Source of the DNA: a virus
Lineage: Duplodnaviria > Caudoviricetes
DNA length: 54,250 bases
Virus record (IMG/VR): IMGVR_UViG_3300033485_000018
Span: 1 to 54,250 of that record
Direction: 5' to 3' (one strand)
In this document: in pieces, positions 3,488 to 52,829 of the stretch
Position numbering within the stretch: the first letter of the stretch is position 1
Layout of the letters: each line of letters starts with the position of its first letter
Notes under the pieces: generated by a model
Told to the model about the DNA's origin: nothing
Seen by the model: the letters and a program-made list of their open reading frames with translations, nothing else
Database searches by the model: none
Position numbers and translations under genes: made by a program

Positions 3488-4969
3488 ATGTCGCTGCAAG
3501 ACATCGTGCAAGTCACCATCACCAAGGAAACGGCATCCGTCGCGCGCACCGGCTTCGGGATCCCGATGATCCTCTCCTACTTCACGCAATTCACCGAGCG
3601 CGCTCGCGTATACGAAACGCTCGCCGAGCTCGAGGCCGACGGGTTCGGCGCCTCGAACTTCGCGCACAAGGCAGCCAGCGCGATCTTTTCGCAGAACCCC
3701 AAGGTGTCATCGATCGTCGTTGGGCGGCGCAACTCCGCGGTCGATCGCGCTGTGACGCTGACCCCGACCGCCAGCCCTCCCGCTTTGACGGCTTACAAGG
3801 TCACGATCAACGATCAAGTCGCGACCTTTACCACCAATGCGGCCCCCACGGTTGCCGAAGTCACGGCGGGGCTCGAGACTGCGATCAATGCGCTCATGCC
3901 GGCAATCTGGCTCACAGTTACACCTTACGTGGTAGGGGATCGACGCAAGCTGAATGGCAACATCTACCAGGCGGTCGTGGCCGGCACGACGGGCGCCACG
4001 GGCCCCTCGGGCACCAAGCAAGCCATCGTCGACGGGACCGTGACGTGGAAGTATATCGGCCCCACCGTGACCGCTACCGACACCGGGCCCGGCACGTCGG
4101 TTGTCATCGCGCAAGACACGGCGGGCGCGCCTTTCCTGCTCGAAGTGGAAAAGCGGGCGTTGCTCACGCAGAAAGACAACACCCCCGATCCTGGCATCGT
4201 GGCCGACCTGACCGCCGTGCGTACTGCGCTCGACGGCAACGATTCTTGGTATGGCTTGATCACCGACTCCCACGGCGAAATCGAGATCGCGCTTGTCGCG
4301 GCTGCGGTGGAGTCCTTGCGCAAGTTCTACCTCGCTTCATGCGCGGACGATGAGATCCTGACGGGTAGCGCGACGGACCTGGCGAGCGATCTCGAGGCCG
4401 CCAACTACGCGCGCACGGCTCTCTTGTGGAGTACCAAGCCGCACACCTTCCCCGAGGCCGCCTGGGTGGGCCGCGTGTTCCCCCTCGATCCGGGTTCCGA
4501 AACGTGGAAGTTCAAGACGCTGACCGGCATCGCGGCGGACACGCTTTCGTCGACCGAGCAAACCAATCTCGACGCCAAGAAGGCGAACCACTACCAGCTT
4601 GTGGCCGGTGTGAACATCACGGCCGAAGGCGTGACGAGTAGCGGCGAGTTCATCGACGTGACGCGCTTCATCGACTCGCTACAAGCGGACATCGAGGAGT
4701 CGGTCTTCGAGCGTTTGGCCGCGCTGCCTAAAGCGGCCTTCACCGACTCGGGGATCGCGATCGTCGAAAACGAGGTGCGCGGCGCTCTGCTGCGCGGGGT
4801 TGAAACGAGCGGGCTTGCCGCGGATCCTGCGCCGACGGTCACAGTGCCGCTTGCCTCGGCAGTTTCTGGTGCCGACAAGAACGCGCGGATCTTGCGCGAT
4901 GTGACCTTCACGGCCACGCTCGCAGGCGCTATCCACAACCTGATCATTAGCGGTCGCCTGTCGGTGTAG
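3488..4969 (+). CDS. Contractile tail sheath protein (DUF3383-like)
   Basis: MSLQDIVQVTI start, PGSETWKFKTLTGI, GEFIDVTR and LAGAIH motifs; start moved to ATG 3488. Confidence 0.85.
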   Translation: MSLQDIVQVTITKETASVARTGFGIPMILSYFTQFTERARVYETLAELEADGFGASNFAHKAASAIFSQNPKVSSIVVGRRNSAVDRAVTLTPTASPPALTAYKVTINDQVATFTTNAAPTVAEVTAGLETAINALMPAIWLTVTPYVVGDRRKLNGNIYQAVVAGTTGATGPSGTKQAIVDGTVTWKYIGPTVTATDTGPGTSVVIAQDTAGAPFLLEVEKRALLTQKDNTPDPGIVADLTAVRTALDGNDSWYGLITDSHGEIEIALVAAAVESLRKFYLASCADDEILTGSATDLASDLEAANYARTALLWSTKPHTFPEAAWVGRVFPLDPGSETWKFKTLTGIAADTLSSTEQTNLDAKKANHYQLVAGVNITAEGVTSSGEFIDVTRFIDSLQADIEESVFERLAALPKAAFTDSGIAIVENEVRGALLRGVETSGLAADPAPTVTVPLASAVSGADKNARILRDVTFTATLAGAIHNLIISGRLSV

Positions 4970-16097: not shown

Positions 16098-19000
16098 TGA
16101 GCATCCAAGCCACGATCAATCGCCTGATCTCGATCCTGCAAACCTACGCGAACGTGCCGCCACGCGAAGCCAAAGAGCTGCGCGCGGGGTTTGACGAGCT
16201 CGCGCCCTTCGCAACCGAGGCCGAGCTTCTCGCGTCGGCCCTCGATGATGGCGCTATCGCCTACGCGGAAGACACCGACAAGTTCTATTTCCGCCGCGCG
16301 GGCGCGTGGTCCAGCGTCGCCAACCCCGATGGCACAGGCAGCGGTGTCGAAGTCTTCGCACTCGAGGCGGCGCTACTCGCGGCCGCGCGCTCCGATGCTG
16401 CGATCGCCTACGCCAGCGATACCGACAAGTTCTATTTCCGCCGCGACGGCGCGTGGTCGAACGTCGCCAACCCGTGCGTCGAAGTCTATGCCACCGAGGC
16501 GGGGCTACTTGTGGCGACGCCGACCGATGCCGCGATCGCCTACGCCAGCGACACCGACAAGTTCTATTTCCGCCGCGACGGCGCATGGTCCGCCACACCC
16601 AACCCCGATCTCGTAGGGATCGAAGTCTTCGCGCTCGAAGCCACACTCCTCGCCGCCGTGCGCAACGACGGCGCGGTGGCCTACGCGCAAGACACCGACA
16701 AGTTCTATTTCCGCCGCAACGGAGCTTGGTCGGCGACGCCCAACCCTGACGCCGATTTCGCCGACCCGTACACTCCGGTTGACGGGACGCTCAACATCAT
16801 CGGCAAGCTCAGCGTCCGCGCTCCCGCGGGCCCCGCGGGTTCCGAGCAATTCGGAGATGCCGCCAGTGCCTCGGCCGCCAATGCCACCGCTCTTGGTTCC
16901 TCCGCGGCCGCCACAACCGCGGGCGCCACCGCGATCGGCGCGGCCGCGGAAGCCTCTGGGGCCTCGGGCGTCACGGCCGCGGGTTTCAACTCGGCCGCGC
17001 TCGGTACCAATGCCACCGCGCTTGGCGACGGCGCGACCGCGGGGGATCCTACCGCGGGCAGCGCCTGCACCGCACTAGGTCAAGGGGCCTTGGCGGGCGC
17101 AGCCAACGTGGCGAATTGCTCGGCCGTAGGGGCTGGCGCGGCCGCCAACACCGCGGCGAACGCCACCGCTACGGGCGCGGGCGCGGTCGCGAGCGGGGCC
17201 GGTGCGACCGCTTCAGGCCAGAGCGCCGATGCGACCGCGGATTCGACAAGCGCCTATGGCAAGGATGCGCAGGCGACCGCGGCCTCGGCAACCGCTACGG
17301 GAGCAGGCGCACAAGCGACCGCGGCTTCGACCACCGCCGAGGGCGCGGCGGCTTTGGCCGCGGGTGCGGACTCGACAGCCATCGGCGCGGACGCGCAGGC
17401 GGGTTCGGGCGCGATCGTAGCCTGCACGGCCGTGGGTGAGAGCTCGCGCGCGGTCGCGGCATCGAACGCAACCGCGCTTGGGGCCAGCGCGGTTGCGAGT
17501 GGCGCAGGGGCGACCGCTTCGGGCCAGAGCGCCGATGCGACCGCAGACTCGACAAGCGCCTATGGCAAAGACGCGCAAGCGACCGCGGCCTCGGCAACCG
17601 CTACGGGAGCGGGTGCGCAAGCAACCGCGGCCTCGACAACCGCCGAGGGCGCGGCGGCCTTGGCCGCGGGTGCCGATTCGACCGCCCTTGGCGCGGACGC
17701 GCAAGCGGGTTCGGGGGCGGTCGTTTCTTGCACGGCCGTGGGCGAAAGCTCGCGCGCTATCGCGGCCTCGAATGCAACCGCGCTTGGGGCTAGCGCGGTT
17801 GCGAGTGGCGCAGGTGCAACCGCTTCGGGCCAGAGCGCCGATGCGACCGCAGACTCGACAAGCGCCTATGGCAAAGACGCGCAAGCGACCGCGGCCTCGG
17901 CGACCGCCACGGGAGCGGGTGCGCAAGCGACCGCGACCTCGACAACCGCCGAGGGCGCGGCGGCCTTGGCCGCGGGTGCAGACTCGACCGCCCTTGGAGC
18001 GGACGCGCAAGCAGGCTCGGGCGCGGTCGTTTCTTGCACGGCCGTGGGCGAAAGCTCGCGCGCGATCGCGGCCTCGAATGCAACCGCGCTTGGGGCTAGC
18101 GCGGTTGCGGGTGGAAGCAACGCAACCGCCTTCGGGCAAGACGCGCAAGCGGGGGCCGTCGGGGTTGCCGAATGCACGGCCGTGGGCAAGGGCTCCCGCG
18201 CCATCGCGGCCGCGCAGGCCTGCGCTTTCGGCCAGGCCACGGTAGCGAGCGGGACGCGCTCGAGCGCTTTCGGCCAGAGCGCGGATGCGACCAACACCGA
18301 CACACTCGCTGCGGGCCAGGCGGCCCAAGCGACCGGGCTGAACTCTTGCGCTCTCGGAGCGGGGGCCTCGGCTTCGGCTTCGCAGACTTTCGCTGCGGGA
18401 ATGACGGCCACGGCCTCGGGGTCAAATTCTTGCGCTACGGGCCAAAGCTCAGCAGCGACAGCCGCGGGCGCGACCGCATATGGCCGTGACGCGACGGCCT
18501 CGGGCACCTCGTCAACAGCTATCGGGAACTCGGCGGATGCGACCGGCACCGGCGGGACCGCCGTGGGCGAGGCGGCGCAAGCCGGCGCGGCCATAAACTG
18601 CACCGCTATCGGAAACGGCGCGATAGCAAGTGCCGCTGGAGGAACCGCGCTTGGAGTGACGGCAACCGCGAACGGGATCGAAAGCACTTGCCTCGGTGGT
18701 GCCGCGAGCTGCGGTGCCGCGACGCGCGCCGTCTCCGTGGGTTACAGCACGATCGCTGGGGAGGATGGCACGGGGGTCGGTCATAACGCGGACGTGCTCG
18801 CGCCCAAAGGAACCACTCTCGGCTCTGATGCGCAGGTCACGGCCGGCCACGACGGCGCGATCGCAATCGGAAAAAGCGCGCGCTCCCAGGGCGCAGGCGA
18901 AGGTGCGTGGGGTGCTTCCGGGCAGCAATGCTCGCTGCGCGTATTCGGTGGCCTGAGCCTTCCCTTCGTGACGAAGAGCGTGGATTACACGCCGACCAAA

Positions 19001-22650: not shown

Positions 22651-22827
22651 CTAGCGCCGTTTAGGGGCCTCTGGTGGCTCGGGTGGTCTCTGGCGCGTGT
22701 AATACTGCGCTAAGAGTGCTTCCCTGTAGGCCATTAGATAGGCGTCGAGCTCTTTGCGCTGTTCGCGGCTCAGGGCCTGGTCGAGTAGCGCCCGGAGCCG
22801 GTAAGCCTTGGCCCACGCGGGGCTCAT
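22651..22827 (-). CDS. 58-aa hypothetical protein absent from the ORF track
   Basis: MSPAWAKAYRLRALLDQALSREQRKELDAYLMAYREALLAQYYTRQRPPEPPEAPKRR; ATGA overlap with 22824-23123. Confidence 0.55.
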   Translation of the reverse strand: MSPAWAKAYRLRALLDQALSREQRKELDAYLMAYREALLAQYYTRQRPPEPPEAPKRR

Positions 22828-23123
22828 CGGAAGCGCTCCGCGTGCTGGTCAGGCAGCGCCGTCATGGTTTCTTCGGTCCGGCACGGATCGGCATCCAGCG
22901 CGTTACAGCTTGGGCACCAACGTAAGCGCTTCATATCCTCGGCCCAGTATTCACGCTCCGTGACCCGAAACAGATCGAGCACCACGAGCTCGGCGCGCCT
23001 GCGCCGCTCGACTTCGCGGGTGTTGGCGGCCAGAAGCTCCGCGAGGCGCCTGCGCAGCTCGCGCAGCTCCGTCGCCGCGTCAGCGAGCTGCCCCAGTGTA
23101 AGGTCTTCCAAGCTCATCGTCAT
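22824..23123 (-). CDS. Hypothetical coiled-coil protein with small Zn-binding motif
   Basis: CPSC..C..H motif; GAAAGGGG RBS. Confidence 0.6.
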   Translation of the reverse strand: MTMSLEDLTLGQLADAATELRELRRRLAELLAANTREVERRRRAELVVLDLFRVTEREYWAEDMKRLRWCPSCNALDADPCRTEETMTALPDQHAERFR

Positions 23124-23144
23124 TCCCCTTTCGTGTGTAGATCT

Positions 23145-23259
23145 ACCTCGCCTTGCCTCGCCTTACCGTGCCCAGCCTTACCGTGCCCAGCCCCGCCCAG
23201 CCTTGCCGTGCCCGACCAAGCCTTGCCTTGCCATGCCCCGCATCGCTTTGCCACGCCGA
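23145..23259 (-). ncRNA. GGY-NN pentamer array, putative guide RNA (VIPR-like)
   Basis: 23 phased 5-nt units, 21 with GGC/GGT, variable dinucleotide between; starts right after the Cas7-like stop codon. Confidence 0.75.
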
Positions 23260-23261
23260 GA

Positions 23262-23843
23262 TCAAGTCTCTGCGGTCAGTTCTTTGAAGCTCGTGACCCT
23301 GAACGTTCCGAACGGGCCACGCTTCTCGGGGCGAAAATCCCCGATCCCAATCTGCTGCCCGCCCTCAGTGAGCAACTGTTGCACGATGTCGACGGGGAGG
23401 AGCAGCTCGTTCACCACGAGCGTGAACCGCGCAGCCCATTGGTCAAGGCGCGGTCGGTAGCGCATGACCTTTCCCTTGGTCGCTGGGATCGTGACCGGGC
23501 GGGCGTCGACTTCGAACGTCGTGGCGCGCTCCGTGTCGGTCGCGAAGAGCGGGATCGCGTCTTCGGTCACGCGCACCGCGGCCGGGACGATGAAGCGCAG
23601 GCTCTTCCGCGAGCCGCGTTGCTTATGCGCGCTGCCCGCGTTGCAGAGCAGCGTCGAGATCGCAGCCCCTGGGTGGTACAGCTCCCCCGATTTCTCGCGG
23701 TAGGCCACGAGCTCGGCCTCATCCCGCGGCACCTTCGCTGCGATCTGCACGCGGCGGGTGCTCTGTTCCGCTTGCGCCGCTTCTCCAAAGCGATGTTGCA
23801 GAAGCGGTGTCGTGCCCGTAATCTCAACTTCGATGGTTTTCAT
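23262..23843 (-). CDS. Stand-alone Cas7/RAMP-like protein (Vipr-like)
   Basis: 193 aa; N-terminal EITGTTPLLQH strand, LYHPGAAI, RYRPRLDQW and Gly-rich GIGDFRPEKRGPFGTF loop; ATGA overlap and AAAGGGG RBS place the start at 23843. Confidence 0.8.
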   Translation of the reverse strand: MKTIEVEITGTTPLLQHRFGEAAQAEQSTRRVQIAAKVPRDEAELVAYREKSGELYHPGAAISTLLCNAGSAHKQRGSRKSLRFIVPAAVRVTEDAIPLFATDTERATTFEVDARPVTIPATKGKVMRYRPRLDQWAARFTLVVNELLLPVDIVQQLLTEGGQQIGIGDFRPEKRGPFGTFRVTSFKELTAET

Positions 23844-24487
23844 AGGAGAACCCCTTTGCGGCTCGTGCGAACGGCCGCGGTTGCAAAAGCGCGCCACCCA
23901 GGGATCCCCGGATCTGCGCCATGGGCCGCCGTCACTTTCTCGAGCTTGGTGACGTCGGGCATCAGGTATTCGCGGGGGATCGCGGCCGCGTCCAACACCT
24001 CCCCCGTCCAAACGATCTTGGATGACGCGCCCGTAGTCGCCGGCACGAATGCGGCGGCCTGCTCGTAGGTCTGCTCGGCCGCGGCCGCGTTGCCGTTCCG
24101 CGCCGCTTCCACAGATGCCGTGAGCAACGCGGCGCGCGCTTGCGCCTGCGCCACGTCCCACGCACCGATCTTGCTCTTGAGTAGCGCTTCGGCTTGCTTC
24201 AGCGCTCGCAGGCCGGGCCGAAAAGTCGCATCGATGTCGGCCGCGACCTTCTTGAGGGGTGCGACCCATGATAGCCGCTTGGCATCCGCGGTGTCGTGGT
24301 TCGCCGCGATCTCCGCCATTGCGTTCGAAGCGAATACTCGATCGGCTTCTTTCGAAATCACGAGACTCTCGCAGAACGCGACCACCTCCCCGCCCTCACG
24401 GGCGAGCTTCGCCGTGAAAGCGTCAACCTCTGGCATCACCACGGCGACCCCCGTCTCGGGTGCGCTTGCTGCTTTCTTCCTAGCCAT
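23840..24487 (-). CDS. Gam/Gp157-like coiled-coil protein
   Basis: Long helical body with C-terminal IPREYLMPD..KL..IPG motif; AAGGGAG RBS. Confidence 0.5.
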   Translation of the reverse strand: MARKKAASAPETGVAVVMPEVDAFTAKLAREGGEVVAFCESLVISKEADRVFASNAMAEIAANHDTADAKRLSWVAPLKKVAADIDATFRPGLRALKQAEALLKSKIGAWDVAQAQARAALLTASVEAARNGNAAAAEQTYEQAAAFVPATTGASSKIVWTGEVLDAAAIPREYLMPDVTKLEKVTAAHGADPGIPGWRAFATAAVRTSRKGVLL

Positions 24488-36758: not shown

Positions 36759-38593
36759 CCGAGCCCCCGTACCACGACGTCGGCGTGGGCGAGGAGCACC
36801 TCGCGGACGGCCATCGACTCCATGCTCGCCTCGTCGACGAACACTGTGCCTTTCCACCCGCTCTCGTCGAGCCATTGGTCAAAGGCGTGCGCGAGCATCG
36901 CCTTGCCGTCGTTGTAGGGGATCAACAGCCAATGGGCCTTGCTCGCTTGATCGGCGACCGCGCGCATGATGGGGCCGAGCAGGTCGATGAGCTGCACGGG
37001 GTCGGCCGCGTCCCCAGGACGCTTGAGGATCGCGCAATTGAACAGCACCGTCAGCCGCGACGCAGGCTCGGGTGCCGGCTGTGAGGGCGGCTGCGAGGGC
37101 GGGGCCTTCGCCTCGCGCTTCTTGCGTGGTTTCTTTGTGAGCTCTGCCAAGAGATCCGCTTCCGTTGCAGCCAAGGCATCGGGGACGGGAGCTTCAAGCG
37201 CATCCGTTAAGGCAGCAATCTGCGCCGAGCTAGCCGCCTCGACATCGGGGATGGGTGCGTTGAGATCGGGAAGTAGTGATGCTGGCGGGGGCCCGATCGG
37301 GAGAGCTGTCGGGGCGCCCGCCACTCCCCCAACTAGGGCCGCGACGGTCTGCGCTGGCATAGCGGGCCCCGCGATTATGGCAGCCGCGGCCGCGTTCACC
37401 GCGGCGGGCGCAGCGACCGCGGCAGCAACGGCCGTATTGATCGCGGTGGGTGCGGCCTGCGCGGGTGCGGGTGCGGGCGGATTGACCCCGCGCAAACCAA
37501 GCAAGCCTTGCAGCTTCTGCAAGGTAGTTTGACCCACCGCGGCCGCGGGAGCGGGCGCGGGCGCTTGCGTCGCCAGAACATTCGCGAGGGTACCTGGGGT
37601 CGCTACACTCGGAGATGCTACGGGCGCGGGTGCGACCGCTTGCACGGGGGCGGGTGCGACCGCTTGCACGGGGGCGGGTGCGACCGCTTGCACGGGCGCG
37701 CTGGGCGCGGGGGCGGGTGCGGGTGCGGGCGCGACCGCTTGCACGGGCGCGGGTGCAGCCTGCGCCGCGCGGAGTTGGTGGAGCTGTTCTAGAAGGGTAG
37801 ATGACATTGCAGGTTCTCCTGTGTCGGGCACGTTAGCTTTGTTTGCACTATTTGTAAATACTTTTCCGGTCGGGAAACCAAAACCGCGCGGGGCGCGACC
37901 AATCGAACAGCGTGAGAGGTAGGTACAGCCCCCGAACATTCCGCAAGCCTCTTCGCAGCCCGGGAGCTGCTCGGGATCTACCTTGCGCTTGCGTAGCTTG
38001 AGCATCTCGAGCGCGAGGGCTTTCAACGATTGCCAGGCGGCTTCCACTTCGACCGCGGTGCGCACGATCGAAACCGGCCGCACCAAGGTCGAGTTGACCT
38101 GCAAGTAGATCCACCGCGCCTCGATCTCGAGCGCCTGCGGGAACAGCTCGAGCGCTGCCTTTGAATAACCGACGTTCTGCGGATCGTCTTGCAGCTCCCC
38201 GACGGTCTTTGCCCAGTGCAGGGATTTCGTTGTCTTGTAGTCGATCACCAGCGCGCGCAGCTCAGCCTCGGTGGGCGGCACGAGACAGTCGATGAACCCG
38301 TGGAACTTGTCGAGCGGGTCATCCCCGAGTGGCAGAAAGAACTCGTGCTCGACCAAGACAGCGGTCGAAGGTGCGGGGAGGATGCCGGGACGCATCGCGC
38401 TTTGTACGAGCCGGCCGATCGCATCGGTGCCTGGCGCTTCGTGAACACCCACGACGCGCTCAAGCCGCTTGTGGATCACGATCCCGTTATCCTGCGCTGC
38501 GGTTTGCCGCTCCGGGATCCCTAGGATCACCTTGAAGGCCCATTTACGCATACAGAGCTTAAAGCTCTGCACCTGTGATGGCGAAATGTTCAT
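36755..38593 (-). CDS. PD-(D/E)XK (RecB/Cas4-like) exonuclease with Ala/Pro-rich extension
   Basis: ISPSQ..C, GFIDC, IDYKT and C..C..C motifs in the first ~235 aa; APVQAVAP repeats; C-terminal globular domain. Confidence 0.8.
   Translation of the reverse strand: MNISPSQVQSFKLCMRKWAFKVILGIPERQTAAQDNGIVIHKRLERVVGVHEAPGTDAIGRLVQSAMRPGILPAPSTAVLVEHEFFLPLGDDPLDKFHGFIDCLVPPTEAELRALVIDYKTTKSLHWAKTVGELQDDPQNVGYSKAALELFPQALEIEARWIYLQVNSTLVRPVSIVRTAVEVEAAWQSLKALALEMLKLRKRKVDPEQLPGCEEACGMFGGCTYLSRCSIGRAPRGFGFPTGKVFTNSANKANVPDTGEPAMSSTLLEQLHQLRAAQAAPAPVQAVAPAPAPAPAPSAPVQAVAPAPVQAVAPAPVQAVAPAPVASPSVATPGTLANVLATQAPAPAPAAAVGQTTLQKLQGLLGLRGVNPPAPAPAQAAPTAINTAVAAAVAAPAAVNAAAAAIIAGPAMPAQTVAALVGGVAGAPTALPIGPPPASLLPDLNAPIPDVEAASSAQIAALTDALEAPVPDALAATEADLLAELTKKPRKKREAKAPPSQPPSQPAPEPASRLTVLFNCAILKRPGDAADPVQLIDLLGPIMRAVADQASKAHWLLIPYNDGKAMLAHAFDQWLDESGWKGTVFVDEASMESMAVREVLLAHADVVVRGLG
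37830..37858 (-). promoter_or_regulatory. Intragenic sigma70-type promoter
   Basis: TTTACA-N17-TAACGT in an AT-rich island, upstream of AGGAG and in-frame ATG 37807. Confidence 0.6.
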
Positions 38594-43645: not shown

Positions 43646-43976
43646 CCCGGATCACCTAGTTTGATCCGGGGTGATCCGGGTGATCCGGGCTGAAGCGAAA
43701 CCGCGGCCGCGCGGCCGGCGGTTACGATCGGTGAAGGCGCGAAGGGGGCCGGGCAACGGACGGGGGAATCGGAGCGGGCAACGGACGGGGGGTTCAAAGG
43801 CCGCTCGCTCGAGCGGAATGGCAACAAAGGGCGGAGGTCGGGGGCATTTCGGCCATGCGCTCGCTCGAGCGGGCCGATGGGGAGAAGGCCTCTCGCTCGA
43901 GCGGGCCGATGGGTTGAAGGCCTCTCGCTCGACGGCGCCGTTGACGGCGCGGTTGACACTCTGCTCGAGCAGAGGC
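43646..43976. repeat. Repeat cluster in the divergent noncoding region (candidate origin or pac site)
   Basis: tgatccggg x3 plus one inverted copy; gggcaacggacggggg x2; ctcgctcga core x4, three at 32-bp spacing; palindrome ctctgctcgagcagag. Confidence 0.75.
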
Positions 43977-43987
43977 TAGATCGGGGC

Positions 43988-44557
43988 ATGGCAAAAGCAG
44001 CCGCCGTCAATGCTCGCGTAGTGAAGCTGACCGACCTGACACCGGACCCGAACAACCTGCGCCTACACCCAGAGCGATCGAAGGAAGCCATCGGGGCATC
44101 GGTGCGGGAGCTCGGCGCGGCGCGGTCGATCGTCGTCGACGGGCAAGGCGTCGTGCGCGCGGGCAACGGGACGCTCGAAGCGGCCGCCGCGGCCGGCATC
44201 ACCGAGGCCGTGGTGATCGAGACCGACGGCAAGCAGCTCGTGGTGGTCAAGCGCCCGGACTGGACGCCCGAGCAGGCGCTGGCCTACGCCATCGCTGATA
44301 ACCGGGCGGGTGAGCTCTCGCATTTCGATCCATTGTTGCTGCAAGCAGCGATGGCCGAACTAGCGCAAGATGCAGTGACCCATGGCACGACTGGTTTGCT
44401 CGACGCGCTTGGCTATACCGAAAAAGAGTCGGCAGCTTTGTTGGGGGAAAGCATGCCAGAGAAGACGGGCGATGTGCAGCGAACCCGCGAGGTATCGTTC
44501 GTTGCGATCGAGAAGGATCTGATGACAGAATGCCCGCGCTGTAAATTCAAATTCTGA
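43988..44557 (+). CDS. ParB/Srx-like N-terminal domain protein
   Basis: LTPDPNNLRLH, IVVD..VRAGNGTLEAA, AIADNR; C-terminal CPRC. Confidence 0.8.
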   Translation: MAKAAAVNARVVKLTDLTPDPNNLRLHPERSKEAIGASVRELGAARSIVVDGQGVVRAGNGTLEAAAAAGITEAVVIETDGKQLVVVKRPDWTPEQALAYAIADNRAGELSHFDPLLLQAAMAELAQDAVTHGTTGLLDALGYTEKESAALLGESMPEKTGDVQRTREVSFVAIEKDLMTECPRCKFKF

Positions 44558-50137: not shown

Positions 50138-50141
50138 GGTG

Positions 50142-52829
50142 ATGGCTGAGCGAAAACTGAGCCGGGAATACCTCGAGGAAGCTCTTAAGCTCGCGCGGGA
50201 GCATCTCCCTACGTGGGCGTGGGCAATGCTGCACGCGCAAGCGCGCCCGCGCTCTGGTGGGCGCGCTCGCGCCCGCGCGGACGGCCCAAGTGAGCTCGAG
50301 AAGCTGGCGTTGCCCATGCTCATGGCGGGAGATGCTCCCGCGCGCGCGTTGTCCGATGACGCGCTGCGCGCCGCTTGGTTGCGCGTAAGCGCGTGGCTCA
50401 CCAGCGCGCAGCGGCGCAAAGAGCCCGTCGAAGATTTCGTCAATGCGGGGGTGTGGCTCGCGGAGGAAATGGATCGGCGCGGCTTGGATGTGGCCGAGAA
50501 CAACCTGCTCCACGCGGTCGCCGAGCTCGGTGAGGTCAGCAAGAAGCTGACTGAGAAACAGCAAGCGGCTTTCGATCGTGAGACCGAGCAGATCCGGGAA
50601 AACAAGCGCAAGCCGGTCGCGCAGGCGGCGCACCCGTTCAAAGCCGCGGAGTGGACGCACCCAAACGGGCACCCGCGCTGTCTGGTCTGCGGCGACGAAG
50701 AGCCCGTGGGCGGGATGTGCGAAGGTGTGGCGCCTGTGCAGAAGCGCGGCGGCTTCGAGGAGCTCGCCGCGTGGGTCGATGGACGCTGGCCGGTGGGCAT
50801 CGTGCCGACCACGCTCTACCCGGAGCCACACCAGATTTGCGCGGAGAGTCCCGCGGCCAAGAGCTTCGCGCAGGCTCTCGCGGGGTTGCCGGAAGGGGCA
50901 AATCTCCACGGGGGATGGCGCCCGGATGGGCGGCGCGGCACTTTCGTTGCGCGCGATTTAGTCACCGACGTGGTCGAGGTGCCTTTCTCTGAGCGGCGCG
51001 CAGCGCTTGAGACTTTTTTTGCCAAGCAGGTGACCGGAACGGAAGGGATAGAGCTCGCGCCGCTTCGGTGGGCGCACAACGCGGAAGAGGCCGAGCAGGC
51101 CGCGCGGCTGTTCTTCGTCGACGCGGCGCAGGGTGTGGACGTGTTCCGCGCGCACGCTTTCGCCGACAAAGCCGACAGCTTCCACATTGCGAAGATGACG
51201 AAGACGGTAGCGCCCTGCGGGCCCGTCGGCGCGCCTGTGGCCTTCGTGACGGCGGCCCCCTCGCGGGTGGAGGGTGCGCTTGGTAGGTTGATCGTTGGTG
51301 AGACCTTCAGCACCTTCGCGAAGCAGTACCTGGCGCCCCTTGGTGTGGCCCGCGAGCAGGTCGCGCTGCTGAGCGCGGTGCCCGAGGTGCTGGTCGATGC
51401 GGTCGGCAAATCGCGCGAGCCGGCCCCCGAGGATCTCGTGCTCTGGCGCGGTTGGTTGCTGTCGGAGTTGGATCGCTTGGCGCCGCGCACCGTCGTTGCA
51501 CTAGGCCGCACCGCGGCCGAGGCGCTGGGCAAGCGCGCGAACTTCGTGCTGCCCCACCCAAGCGCGGTGGCGCGTTATGGGAACTCTCGAGAGGTGCCGC
51601 GCAAGATGCGCAGGATCGCCAAGAGCCTGCGCGCGCTGCCGCTCGCTAAGGTGCTCGACGAAGGCGACGAGACGCAGGCCGAGCGCGCCGATGCGGAGTG
51701 GCGCCGAACGTGGGTGGAGCAGCTCCCCCCGAGCGGCACCGGGCGCTTCGTCTACCAGCACCATTGGCGCGGCTTGGATGATCCCGAGCGCGAGCTATCG
51801 GACGCGCAGCTCCTCGAGACTGATCACAGCCTGCACGGGGATCTGCGCTTCGAAGGCGCCGACGATCGCTTGTTCGGGTGGTCCATCCTGCTCGGCGAGA
51901 CTTCCGCTAACCGCAGCTCGCGGGGCGATCGCTTGGTCGCGGGTGACGCGGAGAACGTGCGCCTGGTCTCGAAGCTCCCGCAGCCCGCCGCGTGGCTCGA
52001 TGTTGGGCGCGGCGAGCCCTTCGTGGTCGCGCCTGGCGGTGCCGGTGCGACAGCCAACACGAGCGCAAAGCTCTTCGCCATCGACGCGGGTACCTACTCG
52101 ATCGGCGTGGTGCGTGAGCATGCCGTTGAGATTTTCCTTGACGGGAAGCACCTGCGCGGGAGATACATGATCTCGTCAGTGCCGACTGAGACTGGCACTC
52201 GGGTTTGGCTGATTCAAAAGCCCTCCGAGCAAAAGCCGATCGCAGCGACGCGCGAGGTGGCCGATGTAGTTCGCCAAGCGAAACGGGATGGGGCCCAATA
52301 CTTAGTATGGGGCCAACCCGGGGCCAGACCGCGGCGCATCAATGTCCAGACCGAGCAGGTCGAGAAGACCGCGGTCGTGCCGATCCTAAAGGCGGACGAA
52401 GAAAAGCAGATCGTCTATGGGGTCGTTTTGGATCCCTACCAGATCGACGCGCACAACGACTGGATCTCACCCGCAGAGATCGAGAACACGGCCCACGGGT
52501 GGCTACAACGCTCACCGGTGGTGAGCTTGAACCATCAAGGGCCGTCGCAATCGAAAGCGGTTGAGAGCTGGATCGAACAGTACCCGCCGGGCGAGTACAG
52601 CAAGGCGATGGCCGGCAAGCCGCATCGCGCGTATAGGCGCAAGTTCGGGCGCGATACGATCCATTCGGGCGCGTGGCTCCTGGGTACAAGGCTGAGCGAT
52701 GCCGAGTGGCAAGCATACAAGCGCGGCGAGCTGCAAGCGTACAGCATCGAAGGGTTCGGGATGCGCACACCGATGAAACCGGGCGACATGCCGAAAGTGA
52801 CCTTCGTGGATTTGGTCGAGAAGGGCTGA
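50142..52829 (+). CDS. Multidomain prohead protease (XkdF-like) with ligase-, UDG- and LigD-PE-like domains
   Basis: C-terminal KQIVYGVVLDP..DAHND..H..YSIEG; internal UDG-like VVALGRTA..PHPS; GRFVYQHH..HGDLRFE. Confidence 0.8.
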   Translation: MAERKLSREYLEEALKLAREHLPTWAWAMLHAQARPRSGGRARARADGPSELEKLALPMLMAGDAPARALSDDALRAAWLRVSAWLTSAQRRKEPVEDFVNAGVWLAEEMDRRGLDVAENNLLHAVAELGEVSKKLTEKQQAAFDRETEQIRENKRKPVAQAAHPFKAAEWTHPNGHPRCLVCGDEEPVGGMCEGVAPVQKRGGFEELAAWVDGRWPVGIVPTTLYPEPHQICAESPAAKSFAQALAGLPEGANLHGGWRPDGRRGTFVARDLVTDVVEVPFSERRAALETFFAKQVTGTEGIELAPLRWAHNAEEAEQAARLFFVDAAQGVDVFRAHAFADKADSFHIAKMTKTVAPCGPVGAPVAFVTAAPSRVEGALGRLIVGETFSTFAKQYLAPLGVAREQVALLSAVPEVLVDAVGKSREPAPEDLVLWRGWLLSELDRLAPRTVVALGRTAAEALGKRANFVLPHPSAVARYGNSREVPRKMRRIAKSLRALPLAKVLDEGDETQAERADAEWRRTWVEQLPPSGTGRFVYQHHWRGLDDPERELSDAQLLETDHSLHGDLRFEGADDRLFGWSILLGETSANRSSRGDRLVAGDAENVRLVSKLPQPAAWLDVGRGEPFVVAPGGAGATANTSAKLFAIDAGTYSIGVVREHAVEIFLDGKHLRGRYMISSVPTETGTRVWLIQKPSEQKPIAATREVADVVRQAKRDGAQYLVWGQPGARPRRINVQTEQVEKTAVVPILKADEEKQIVYGVVLDPYQIDAHNDWISPAEIENTAHGWLQRSPVVSLNHQGPSQSKAVESWIEQYPPGEYSKAMAGKPHRAYRRKFGRDTIHSGAWLLGTRLSDAEWQAYKRGELQAYSIEGFGMRTPMKPGDMPKVTFVDLVEKG

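Follow-up and report, generated by a model that had tools for sequence, protein, structure and literature searches.

On the minus strand of the analysed window, a stretch of 54,250 nt, lies a stand-alone RAMP (Cas7-like) ORF of 193 aa, here called vipr, followed by an array of 23 pentamers of the form GGY-NN. Read from the translation, vipr occupies positions 23262..23843 (minus strand), with its start ATG at 23843 and its stop TGA at 23264-23262, and a Shine-Dalgarno-like motif (AAAGGGG; 23851..23857, minus strand) is found in the sequence 7 nt 5' of the ATG. The encoded protein, Vipr, begins with MKTIEVEITGTTPLLQH and contains GIGDFRPEKRGPFGTF. Four bases (TCTC, 23261-23258) separate the stop from the array (23143..23257, minus strand), which runs from 23257 to 23143 in 23 units of exactly 5 nt each. 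GGY is present in 21 units (17 GGC, 4 GGT) and replaced by AGC in unit 3 and TGC in unit 4, and all 23 units have a G at position 2 and a pyrimidine at position 3. The NN series extracted by script is GT AA GA GG AT AA AA TT CG AC AA TG GG TG AC AA TG AC AA GA AA GA AG. The gene and the in-phase pentamers 4 nt past its stop had been described in a first-pass annotation of the sequence, all details of which, including the NN order, were reproduced.

Neither strand of the genome contains a second run of this kind. When the 54,250-nt genome was simulated 200 times with a first-order Markov model, the longest stretch of in-phase GGY units averaged 3.9 and never exceeded 6, compared with 21 in the real array, and a chance origin of the array is excluded. 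The array also contains an exact internal duplication (23160..23192, minus strand), in which units 14-16 (GGCTG GGCAC GGTAA) recur as units 17-19 and which TRF detected as a period-15 repeat of 2.2 copies with 100% match. The dinucleotides, described as free in the first-pass annotation, are less free than implied there, given this duplication and the use of AA in 7 of the 23 units. Units 1-3 and units 20-22 are alike in 13 of 15 bases.

The last four units (GGCGA GGCAA GGCGA GGTAG; 23143..23162, minus strand) form a purine-rich 3' end that resembles the biased ends of arrays in related loci. Of 81 unique arrays, 63 have TT, AA, GA or AG as their final NN, whereas the frequencies in interior units predict about 33%, and the pair GGYRA-GGYAG is terminal in 7 of the 81 but makes up 1% of interior unit pairs; the array of one relative (L013) ends in the identical three units GGCAA GGCGA GGTAG. 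The last three or four purine-rich units of the phage array may therefore be a 3' handle and not part of the guide. The palindrome GTAGATCTAC (23137..23146), at which the array had been reported to end, is indeed present there, occurs once and overlaps the last unit GGTAG; it is one of 106 perfect 10-nt palindromes in the 54-kb genome, however, and probably without significance. No stable fold was detected around the 3' end of the array (z -0.67), no tRNA-like element was found near it by ARAGORN, and the Rfam search, which included hammerhead ribozymes, yielded no credible family (a lone match at E 0.062 reached 17.5 bits against a gathering score of 70). A search for a promoter-like or terminator-like site belonging to the array itself was also negative, and the next gene probably starts 25 nt past the end of the array.

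Upstream of vipr, an ORF for a phage hypothetical protein of 215 aa (23840..24487, minus strand) is translationally coupled to it, its stop overlapping the vipr start (ATGA). This protein has a weak partial match to phrog_10477 'exonuclease' (E 1.3e-9, residues 29-145 only) and no match in Pfam or PDB, and its neighbours in the Atlas are viral hypotheticals. Downstream, in the same operon as vipr, lies an ORF for a 99-aa coiled-coil protein of unknown function (22824..23123, minus strand; 97 aa if begun at the better-spaced ATG 23117), which is preceded by the RBS motif AAAGGGG (23131-23125), has no match in Pfam, PHROGs or PADLOC and gave weak leads only in the Atlas, where the sequence runs from residue 3. 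Neither flanking ORF is conserved next to vipr in 38 other loci, and apart from the partial phrog_10477 match neither has a match to a DNA-binding, nuclease or helicase family. Judged by Pfam, PHROGs, PADLOC, the Atlas and neighbourhood conservation, the flanking ORFs thus appear to include no recognisable vap.

The closest characterised counterpart of the 193-aa protein belongs to the VIPR (Viral Interference Programmable Repeat) systems, an already known kind of system first described in preprints of April 2026. Vipr matches the PDB entry 36pp_D ('SUSP1 Vipr protein') as a single sequence with E 1.3e-5 over residues 1-184, and a profile of 46 sequences (A2) matches it with E 9.1e-14 over positions 1-188, although identity to the SUSP1-clade protein is only about 25%. 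Over its full length Vipr also matches phrog_4652 (function unknown; E 2.5e-21), and the AF2 model (pLDDT 86) is a full-length fold of the Csm3/Cas7 type. By tblastn, full-length weak matches to Vipr were obtained in 119 phage records, including Ounavirinae phages of E. coli and Pseudomonas phage LESphi2, and profile searches delineated a family of 7012 clusters (50% identity) at E <= 1e-3, or 2647 at E <= 1e-10. According to section 5 of the structural preprint, GGY is contacted in the SUSP1 cryo-EM structure by H17, R138, D177, W178 and R179 (10.64898/2026.04.26.720927). These residues align with H17, R130, D169, F170 and R171 of Vipr, of which H17, R130, D169 and R171 are invariant in alignment A1, while position 170 is aromatic throughout. 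K33, which contacts the target backbone in SUSP1, is not conserved and aligns with Q33, located in a helical insert that is shorter than that of SUSP1 and modelled with low confidence (AF2 pLDDT 56-67). R30 is nearly invariant within the clade of Vipr and, going by the alignment, might substitute for the K33 backbone contact.

The record is that of a complete 54-kb virus with direct terminal repeats, and its source is a complete, high-GC, uncultured, myovirus-like tailed phage. PHROGs assigned only phage structural and replication functions to 25 large ORFs; no near match to the phage was found among GenBank phages, and its large terminase has no relatives among genome contigs. The GC3 of vipr (0.80) equals that of the rest of the phage's genes. 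In agreement with the first-pass annotation, which had seen neither further cas genes nor a CRISPR array, these PHROGs assignments contain none, no repeat-spacer array was detected in the 54-kb genome, and no Cas or other defence-system model of PADLOC-DB was matched by 38 proteins including Vipr; of the four matches obtained, three were to methyltransferase models (on two proteins) and one was to a polymerase-like DRT model (on the DNA polymerase). An identity as class 1 CRISPR-Cas effector was rejected because these searches revealed neither other cas genes nor an array and the genome is that of a complete phage. Although Vipr shares the fold of the class 1 backbone proteins (Cas7; Csm3 of type III-A, Cas7 of type VII), it is matched by no PADLOC Cas model, and the phage has neither a repeat-spacer array nor an adaptation module. 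Furthermore, VIPR has a period of 5 nt with 3 bases sequestered and reads dsDNA with a gap, whereas class 1 CRISPR-Cas systems have a period of 6 nt with 1 base flipped and read contiguous RNA or DNA.

The first-pass annotation had proposed that homologues be examined for adjacent arrays with different NN content. Where homologous loci include flanking DNA (34 loci), pentamer arrays with different NN were found nearby on the same strand in 33, in most cases adjoining the gene. Such arrays lie directly 3' of the gene in each of the 12 viral loci whose downstream DNA is available (8 distinct array sets); the 22 genome loci with flanks comprise 18 with GGY arrays, three with a variant array of 5-nt period and one (L034) without any. 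The array begins at most 20 nt past the vipr stop in 16 of 24 distinct loci. Among the tblastn matches, both loci examined carry GGY-NN arrays: the LESphi2 locus has three upstream of the gene, and the ESCO56 locus has two upstream and one after the second gene. The interior NN of the 81 unique arrays make use of all 16 dinucleotides at 2.7-11.3% each. Changes at G1 account for 50 of the 108 non-GGY units across the family and are the commonest degeneracy, and both the AGC and the TGC unit of the phage array are of this type. Whole-unit duplications are common in the arrays of relatives (for example L019 compared with L020).

These comparative data refute the notion that the array is a slippage microsatellite, or a chance G-rich repeat, unrelated to vipr. 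TRF does report the array as a period-5 repeat, but a weak one (66% matches, score 37) that contains nested repeats of periods 15, 20 and 25, and the internal duplication indicates that slippage-like events do happen. Such an origin is nevertheless hard to reconcile with a run of 21 in-phase GGY units far beyond the simulated maximum, with variation restricted to the NN positions, and with the recurrence of same-strand arrays at 33 of 34 homologous genes in very different genomes of very different GC content; its probability is practically nil. Hypervariable NN within a fixed GGY among relatives is instead the signature of a programmable guide.

This same pattern bears on the idea that the array acts mainly in cis, regulating its own operon as RNA or DNA without guiding anything to DNA in trans, for instance as Vipr-coated intercistronic RNA or as a G-rich (GG-N3)n structure that controls translation or stability of vipr and of the 99-aa and 58-aa ORFs downstream of it. 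The intercistronic position of the array, which begins 4 nt past the vipr stop and leaves 25 nt to the next likely start, would suit such a role, as would the failure to find promoter-like or terminator-like sites of its own and the recurrence of the order vipr, array, RBS and ORF in L017, L018, L026, L027, L031 and L032. A purely cis-acting element, however, predicts NN that are conserved or irrelevant, which differs from the hypervariable NN and fixed GGY observed, and the Results of the SUSP1 preprint describe experimentally demonstrated DNA targeting in trans by the homologous system (10.64898/2026.04.26.720920). We consider a mainly cis-acting array highly improbable, while noting that cis regulation and trans guiding are not mutually exclusive roles.

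For the guide reading, target sites were sought on both strands under the rule of a 1-nt skip, with the threshold of at least 80% NN match used in the VIPR papers. The best site in the phage's own genome matches 24 of 46 NN bases, compared with 24.6 +/- 1.0 for shuffled guides, and hence there is no self-target; the VIPR paper likewise reports its systems as free of self-targeting. Seed-based, non-exhaustive searches of IMG/VR and of metagenome and genome collections revealed no natural target at or above 80% NN, and hence none in a rival phage or the host, where the first-pass annotation had placed it. For IMG/VR six seeds of 8 or 10 units and one de-duplicated seed were used, and for metagenomes and genomes one seed of 9 units. 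Exact 10-unit runs (units 5-14 and 10-19) had 0 matches in viral contigs. The seeds of units 2-9, 5-12, 9-16 and 12-19 had 25, 21, 18 and 39 matches in viral contigs, with best non-seed scores of 13/30, 11/30, 13/30 and 12/30, respectively; the seed derived from the guide minus its internal duplication had 28 matches (best 11/24), and the 9-unit seed (units 8-16) had 19 metagenome and 18 genome matches (best 13/28). The seed extensions are at chance level only.

Two partial matches were rejected as targets. A site in Paenibacillus sp. GM2 (L113) agrees in 26/28 positions over units 6-19 but in 31/46 (67%) overall, and one in an AT-rich 1-kb viral contig (L176) agrees in 23/24 over units 1-12 but in 29/46 (63%) overall; in the latter the skipped base misses the wobble position of the likely ORF. 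Given the size of the collections, chance alone is estimated to yield about one partial match this good. Compared with the loci of 38 relatives, the phage guide reaches 59% at best. Conversely, the relatives' arrays were rejected as guides against the phage, since 80% was reached only by arrays of 8-10 units, which is chance for such short guides.

The missing target raises the question of whether the locus is decaying or idle, with vipr intact but a guide that matches nothing and is a leftover or a mere sink for Vipr. Besides the lack of a target at 80% NN in any search, this would be in line with the composition of the array: its A-rich, low-complexity NN series, the two G1-degenerate units and the exact 3-unit duplication indicate that the guide could be decaying, and the likeness of units 1-3 to units 20-22 looks as if the end of an earlier guide had been fused upstream. 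On the other hand, Vipr has kept all tested GGY-contact residues and the full-length fold, the codon composition of vipr is that of the phage's own genes, and G1 degeneracy and whole-unit duplications are, as noted above, common in relatives. The missing target itself counts for little, since the searched collections do not cover the host with its mobile elements and the seed searches were not exhaustive. Decay of the locus is thus regarded as improbable.

Taken together, the analyses suggest that the locus is very probably a VIPR system, in which vipr is paired with one gene for a guide RNA (vrRNA); encoded by a complete tailed phage of 54 kb, it would work as the SUSP1 system does. The first-pass annotation had proposed a match to VIPR, an identification borne out by the homology to 36pp_D and by homologues that bear arrays with different NN; the phage locus is another real example of this known kind. 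A VIPR array is expected to comprise 4 or more tandem YNNGG/GGYNN units with a fixed trinucleotide and variable NN, and the phage array has 23 units. The reference loci of type II are those of Escherichia phage SUSP1 and a Pseudomonas fulva prophage (10.64898/2026.04.26.720920, PMC13142463). As these are described there, they have in common with the phage locus a stand-alone RAMP of about 190 aa with RRM core, thumb and G-loop, the H17, thumb Arg and G-loop D-aromatic-R residues, and a vrRNA of GGY-NN pentamers with hypervariable NN; both are phage-borne and free of cas genes, a CRISPR array and a self-target. The same GGY-NN grammar is reported for the orphan or solo vrRNA arrays of satellites and VIPR-null phages (10.64898/2026.10.15.759431), but the phage array is no orphan, as it lies directly behind an intact vipr.

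The phage locus differs from the described type II reference loci in several respects. It has one guide of 23 units, whereas the reference loci have several guides of 9-16 units, and this guide abuts the vipr stop inside the operon, unlike the guides of the type II loci. The characterised type II vrRNAs are described as having a conserved 3' tail with a pseudoknot, as in the SUSP1 clade; none was detected in the phage array, and its relatives show only the compositional bias in their last units. Such a tail may not be a defining feature of VIPR, since architectures vary among the other types described in the paper. VIPR loci are said in the paper to have 'typically' two protein genes, but no vap1-like second gene was recognised in the phage locus.

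The mechanism in the phage would follow that of the SUSP1 system. The first-pass annotation had proposed that one protomer binds each GGY and displays NN for a gapped target, and this coincides with the mechanism as published in the Results of one preprint and sections 5-6 of the other (10.64898/2026.04.26.720920, 10.64898/2026.04.26.720927) and is compatible with the conserved GGY-contacting residues. By analogy to SUSP1, the array would be transcribed and one Vipr protomer would bind per pentamer, and adjacent protomers would hold each GGY between them through H17, R130 of the thumb and D169-F170-R171 of the G-loop. The resulting filament would display the NN dinucleotides, which would pair with dsDNA read as NN-x-NN-x, one base being skipped per unit. 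The gapped R-loop thus formed would block transcription of the bound gene, most likely one carried by a competitor in the same host, be it a phage, prophage or satellite. As no recognisable vap was found, binding and repression would be expected rather than cleavage. The position of the guide between the vipr stop and the next likely start, with neither a promoter-like or terminator-like site of its own nor a structured tail, suggests that it is made from the operon transcript, and the guide probably is a 3'-UTR or intercistronic part of the vipr operon transcript that is trimmed to the protein-protected stretch. More tentatively, and with a clearly lower likelihood than the VIPR identity itself, the locus could belong to a minimal VIPR subtype lacking both vap and tail, which would include the many relatives with the layout vipr, array, RBS and gene. 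In this subtype the guide would have no gene of its own but be 3'-UTR or intercistronic vipr mRNA, newly made Vipr would assemble in cis on its own transcript, and the filament together with a purine-rich end mark would set the mature vrRNA and tune translation of vipr and of the downstream genes.

By itself the phage locus opens no new question. Its compact layout, with a 23-unit guide inside the operon and neither vap nor tail, is that of a convenient minimal system for vrRNA maturation and the setting of vrRNA ends. Since Vipr is about 25% identical to the SUSP1 protein yet keeps the residues that read GGY, it supports the view that the published code of recognition applies generally.

The vipr gene, a 193-aa ORF on the minus strand, extends from an ATG at 23843 to a TGA stop at 23264-23262. 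It is followed, four bases past the stop and on the same strand, by an array of 23 units of exactly 5 nt (23257 to 23143). GGY forms the first three bases of 21 of these 23 units, with AGC in unit 3 and TGC in unit 4, and all 23 carry G at position 2 and a pyrimidine at position 3. The array is the sole example on both strands of the genome, and none of 200 first-order Markov simulations of the genome produced an in-phase GGY run longer than 6 units. The coordinates and phase described in the first-pass annotation were reproduced, and its series of variable dinucleotides (NN) was identical to the one extracted by script. Its description of the NN as free holds only in part: the array phase was confirmed, but units 17–19 are an exact repeat of units 14–16 and AA occupies 7 of the 23 NN positions. 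The palindrome GTAGATCTAC (23146-23137), which overlaps the final unit and had been described as the array end, is not special, being one of 106 perfect 10-nt palindromes in the window.

The first-pass annotation had also proposed a match to VIPR (Viral Interference Programmable Repeat), a system that is already published (10.64898/2026.04.26.720920) together with a cryo-EM companion (10.64898/2026.04.26.720927); further literature includes a satellite competition study (10.64898/2026.10.15.759431) and a language-model survey recovering 99 VIPR-like clusters (10.64898/2026.10.21.760802). Its hallmarks are a stand-alone RAMP protein (Vipr), vrRNAs consisting of GGY/NN pentamers that each bind a single protomer, recognition of dsDNA in which every unit skips one base, repression of transcription in competing mobile elements, and mostly viral carriage (10.64898/2026.04.26.720920, 10.64898/2026.04.26.720927). 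The identification proved right, because the sequence-testable features are present in the window locus save for the tail and a VIPR accessory (vap) gene. In agreement with the claim that other cas genes and a CRISPR array are absent, no CRISPR-type repeat-spacer array was found in the window, and 0 of 38 window proteins scanned matched the Cas models of PADLOC.

Pfam gave no match for Vipr, which was assigned to phrog_4652 (function unknown; E 2.5e-21) in PHROGs. Its only single-sequence match among PDB sequences was 36pp_D, "SUSP1 Vipr protein" (E 1.3e-5), from an Escherichia phage with a characterised type II VIPR. With a 46-sequence profile this match covered the full length (E 9.1e-14), and the one other row was a chance-level Fab chain (E 0.48). 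The alignment of these 46 sequences yielded a confident AlphaFold2 model (pLDDT 86, pTM 0.80), whose best Foldseek matches were all Csm3/Cas7 chains (E ~3e-6, probability 1.00), so that the modelled structure supports the RAMP/Cas7-like fold proposed earlier. The cryo-EM paper reports that in SUSP1 Vipr G1 is contacted by H17 and D177, G2 by R138 and W178, and Y3 by R179 (10.64898/2026.04.26.720927). With SUSP1 positions counted along the PDB sequence of the profile alignment, these five residues align with H17, D169, R130, F170 and R171 of the window Vipr, respectively. H17, R130, D169 and R171 are invariant in six divergent homologues, including one Ounavirinae and one Pseudomonas phage protein, and position 170 is aromatic in all six. 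In contrast, K33 of SUSP1, a target-backbone contact, aligns with Q33, which lies within a poorly modelled helical insert, shorter by 11 residues in the window Vipr. The family is large, as a word-indexed search retrieved 1101 proteins at E <= 1e-3 (top identity 66%) and an exhaustive profile search 7012, 2647 and 219 clusters (50% identity) at E <= 1e-3, 1e-10 and 1e-30, respectively.

The expectation that homologues are accompanied by arrays of different NN content was clearly confirmed. All 12 viral loci with downstream DNA, which comprise 8 distinct array sets, carried same-strand GGY-NN arrays with differing NN directly 3' of the gene; one further viral locus, ending inside the gene, was left out. 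Among 23 genome loci, of which one ending inside the gene was left out, 18 of the 22 counted had same-strand GGY arrays near the gene and 3 had arrays of 5-nt period whose fixed part differs from GGY; the remaining one, L034, had no array near the gene. These three arrays, all beside distant homologues, have GTT/GnT as fixed part in one Pacearchaeota MAG, and nGC in the two others, which are Pyrinomonadaceae MAGs (L028, 3529-3937; L030, 2720-2819; L033, 1400-1580), in line with non-canonical motifs reported in the survey (10.64898/2026.10.21.760802). The first unit run began <=20 nt past the vipr stop in 16 of 24 distinct loci. All 16 dinucleotides occurred among the interior NN (2.7-11.3% each) of 81 unique arrays comprising 1269 units, and 50 of the 108 non-GGY units had changes at G1 only, mostly TGC and TGT, as in the window phage. 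Homology to 36pp_D, conservation of the GGY-reading residues, array grammar and family-wide linkage of array and gene were all observed here, and on these sequence features the window locus is a real, well-supported VIPR locus.

Type II guides comprise 9-16 units according to the VIPR paper, compared with 23 in the window phage. This is long yet not exceptional in the clade, as 14 of the 81 arrays reach >=23 units (median 13, maximum 42). Two near-identical MAG loci (L019, 3706-3825; L020, 3706-3845) are told apart by four units (20 nt) that are duplicated exactly within the vrRNA array of one of them; together with the 3-unit duplication in the window, this indicates that array length changes by whole-unit duplication with the 5-nt phase kept. 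The 3' ends of the arrays were biased, with TT, AA, GA or AG as final NN in 63/81 arrays (~33% expected from interior frequencies) and GGYRA-GGYAG terminal in 7/81, compared with 1% of interior unit pairs. The last four units of the window array (GA AA GA AG) are consistent with this bias, and its last three are identical to the array end GGCAA GGCGA GGTAG of L013, a locus with a GC-rich hairpin and T-run directly 3'. These observations are modest evidence that the last units may be an end mark instead of guide. Directly 3' of 21 of the 81 unique arrays (L002-L039), although not of the window array, lies GGA, which could mark the filament end because its third base is a purine, a class of base that the Y3 pocket reportedly does not admit.

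The vipr ATG and the stop of the 215-aa ORF upstream of it overlap as ATGA, and the vipr start is preceded by an AAAGGGG motif. A second AAAGGGG lies 3' of the array (23131-23125, minus strand), followed by a 99-aa ORF whose better-spaced start is ATG 23117; this array-RBS-ORF layout also occurs in L017, L018, L026, L027, L031 and L032. No promoter-like or terminator-like site, stable fold (z -0.67) or tRNA-like element (ARAGORN) was found in or beside the window array, and Rfam gave no credible match (one at chance level, E 0.062, 17.5 bits vs a gathering score of 70). Since the array thus lacks its own signals and sits between two translationally organised genes, the guide is probably a segment of the vipr operon transcript, trimmed to the protein-protected part. 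In the related viral locus L010, ARAGORN calls an 89-nt tRNA-like gene (3581-3669; Ala, GGC) between two arrays, in which the 3' portion of the first downstream array is joined to a T-arm-like hairpin and CCA.

No vap gene could be named among the vipr neighbours in the window. The 215-aa protein matches a phrog "exonuclease" just weakly and over part of its length, and its neighbours in the Atlas are viral hypotheticals, the 99-aa protein is a coiled-coil without family assignment, and neither adjoins vipr in the 38 other loci examined. The only conserved vipr neighbour in the locus set is a ~250-aa gene confined to a distant sub-clade, located downstream of vipr in most of its members (L030, L031, L033, L035, L039) and without Pfam match in 4/4 members examined; a cluster member in L032 (3504-4310) overlaps the vipr end and the first array and may be spurious. 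This gene is a candidate vap gene of the sub-clade.

The window is a complete IMG/VR virus record (54,250 bp, direct terminal repeats, rated 100% complete) with a G + C content of 64%. PHROGs identified a major head protein, tail sheath, tape measure, baseplate wedge, small and large terminase, portal, DNA polymerase, ParB-like protein and amidase endolysin, and, among further ORFs, matches to helicase, primase and exonuclease families. No near relative was found among GenBank phages, and no relative of the terminase in the genome collection. Dense short tandem and direct repeats at 43660-43960 (32 nt x 2.5 copies, 25 nt x 2, 8-12-nt units), just upstream of and into the start of the ParB-like gene (43877-44557; phrog_620, E 1e-25), may represent a parS/centromere-like site or origin. 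Further tandem repeats occur in the tail-fibre region at 16346-18114 (132 nt x 2.9 copies, 16346-16732; 306 nt x 3.1 copies with 92% identity and nested 42-nt units, 17181-18114) and, as a G-rich 24-nt unit in 5.6 copies (37604-37780), within a 612-aa ORF that resembles phage exonuclease families at its N-terminus. An 896-aa protein (50139-52829) has head-maturation-protease matches at C-terminal residues 728-878 only.

A target in phage or host DNA, proposed in the first-pass annotation, did not emerge from the searches. Under the published rule, which skips one base per unit, the best site in the phage's own genome matched 24/46 NN bases vs 24.6 +/- 1.0 for shuffled guides; the phage does not target itself under this rule. 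Public collections were searched with exact seeds only, whose extensions were then scored: two 10-unit seeds, four 8-unit seeds and one de-duplicated seed in IMG/VR, and one 9-unit seed in the metagenome and genome collections. Match counts were near chance and no extension exceeded it. The two best partial matches (67% and 63% of NN) were rejected, being under the papers' 80% threshold and in DNA of unsuitable composition; by our estimate they are expected about once by chance at such collection sizes. The guide also had no match in relatives' VIPR loci (best 59%). The missing target is weak evidence against function, given a non-exhaustive, seed-based search and a terminase without any relative in the genome collection that could point to a host.

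In the homologous SUSP1 system, the array RNA is known to be made and bound by one Vipr protomer per unit, and its NN to base-pair with dsDNA of the form NN-x-NN-x, which is silenced by this binding; by analogy, the window locus would act in the same way. The peculiarities of the locus, namely a single long guide, its intercistronic position, the lack of a tail and vap gene, and an array that changes by duplication of whole units, are useful details of VIPR and do not constitute a new kind of system.
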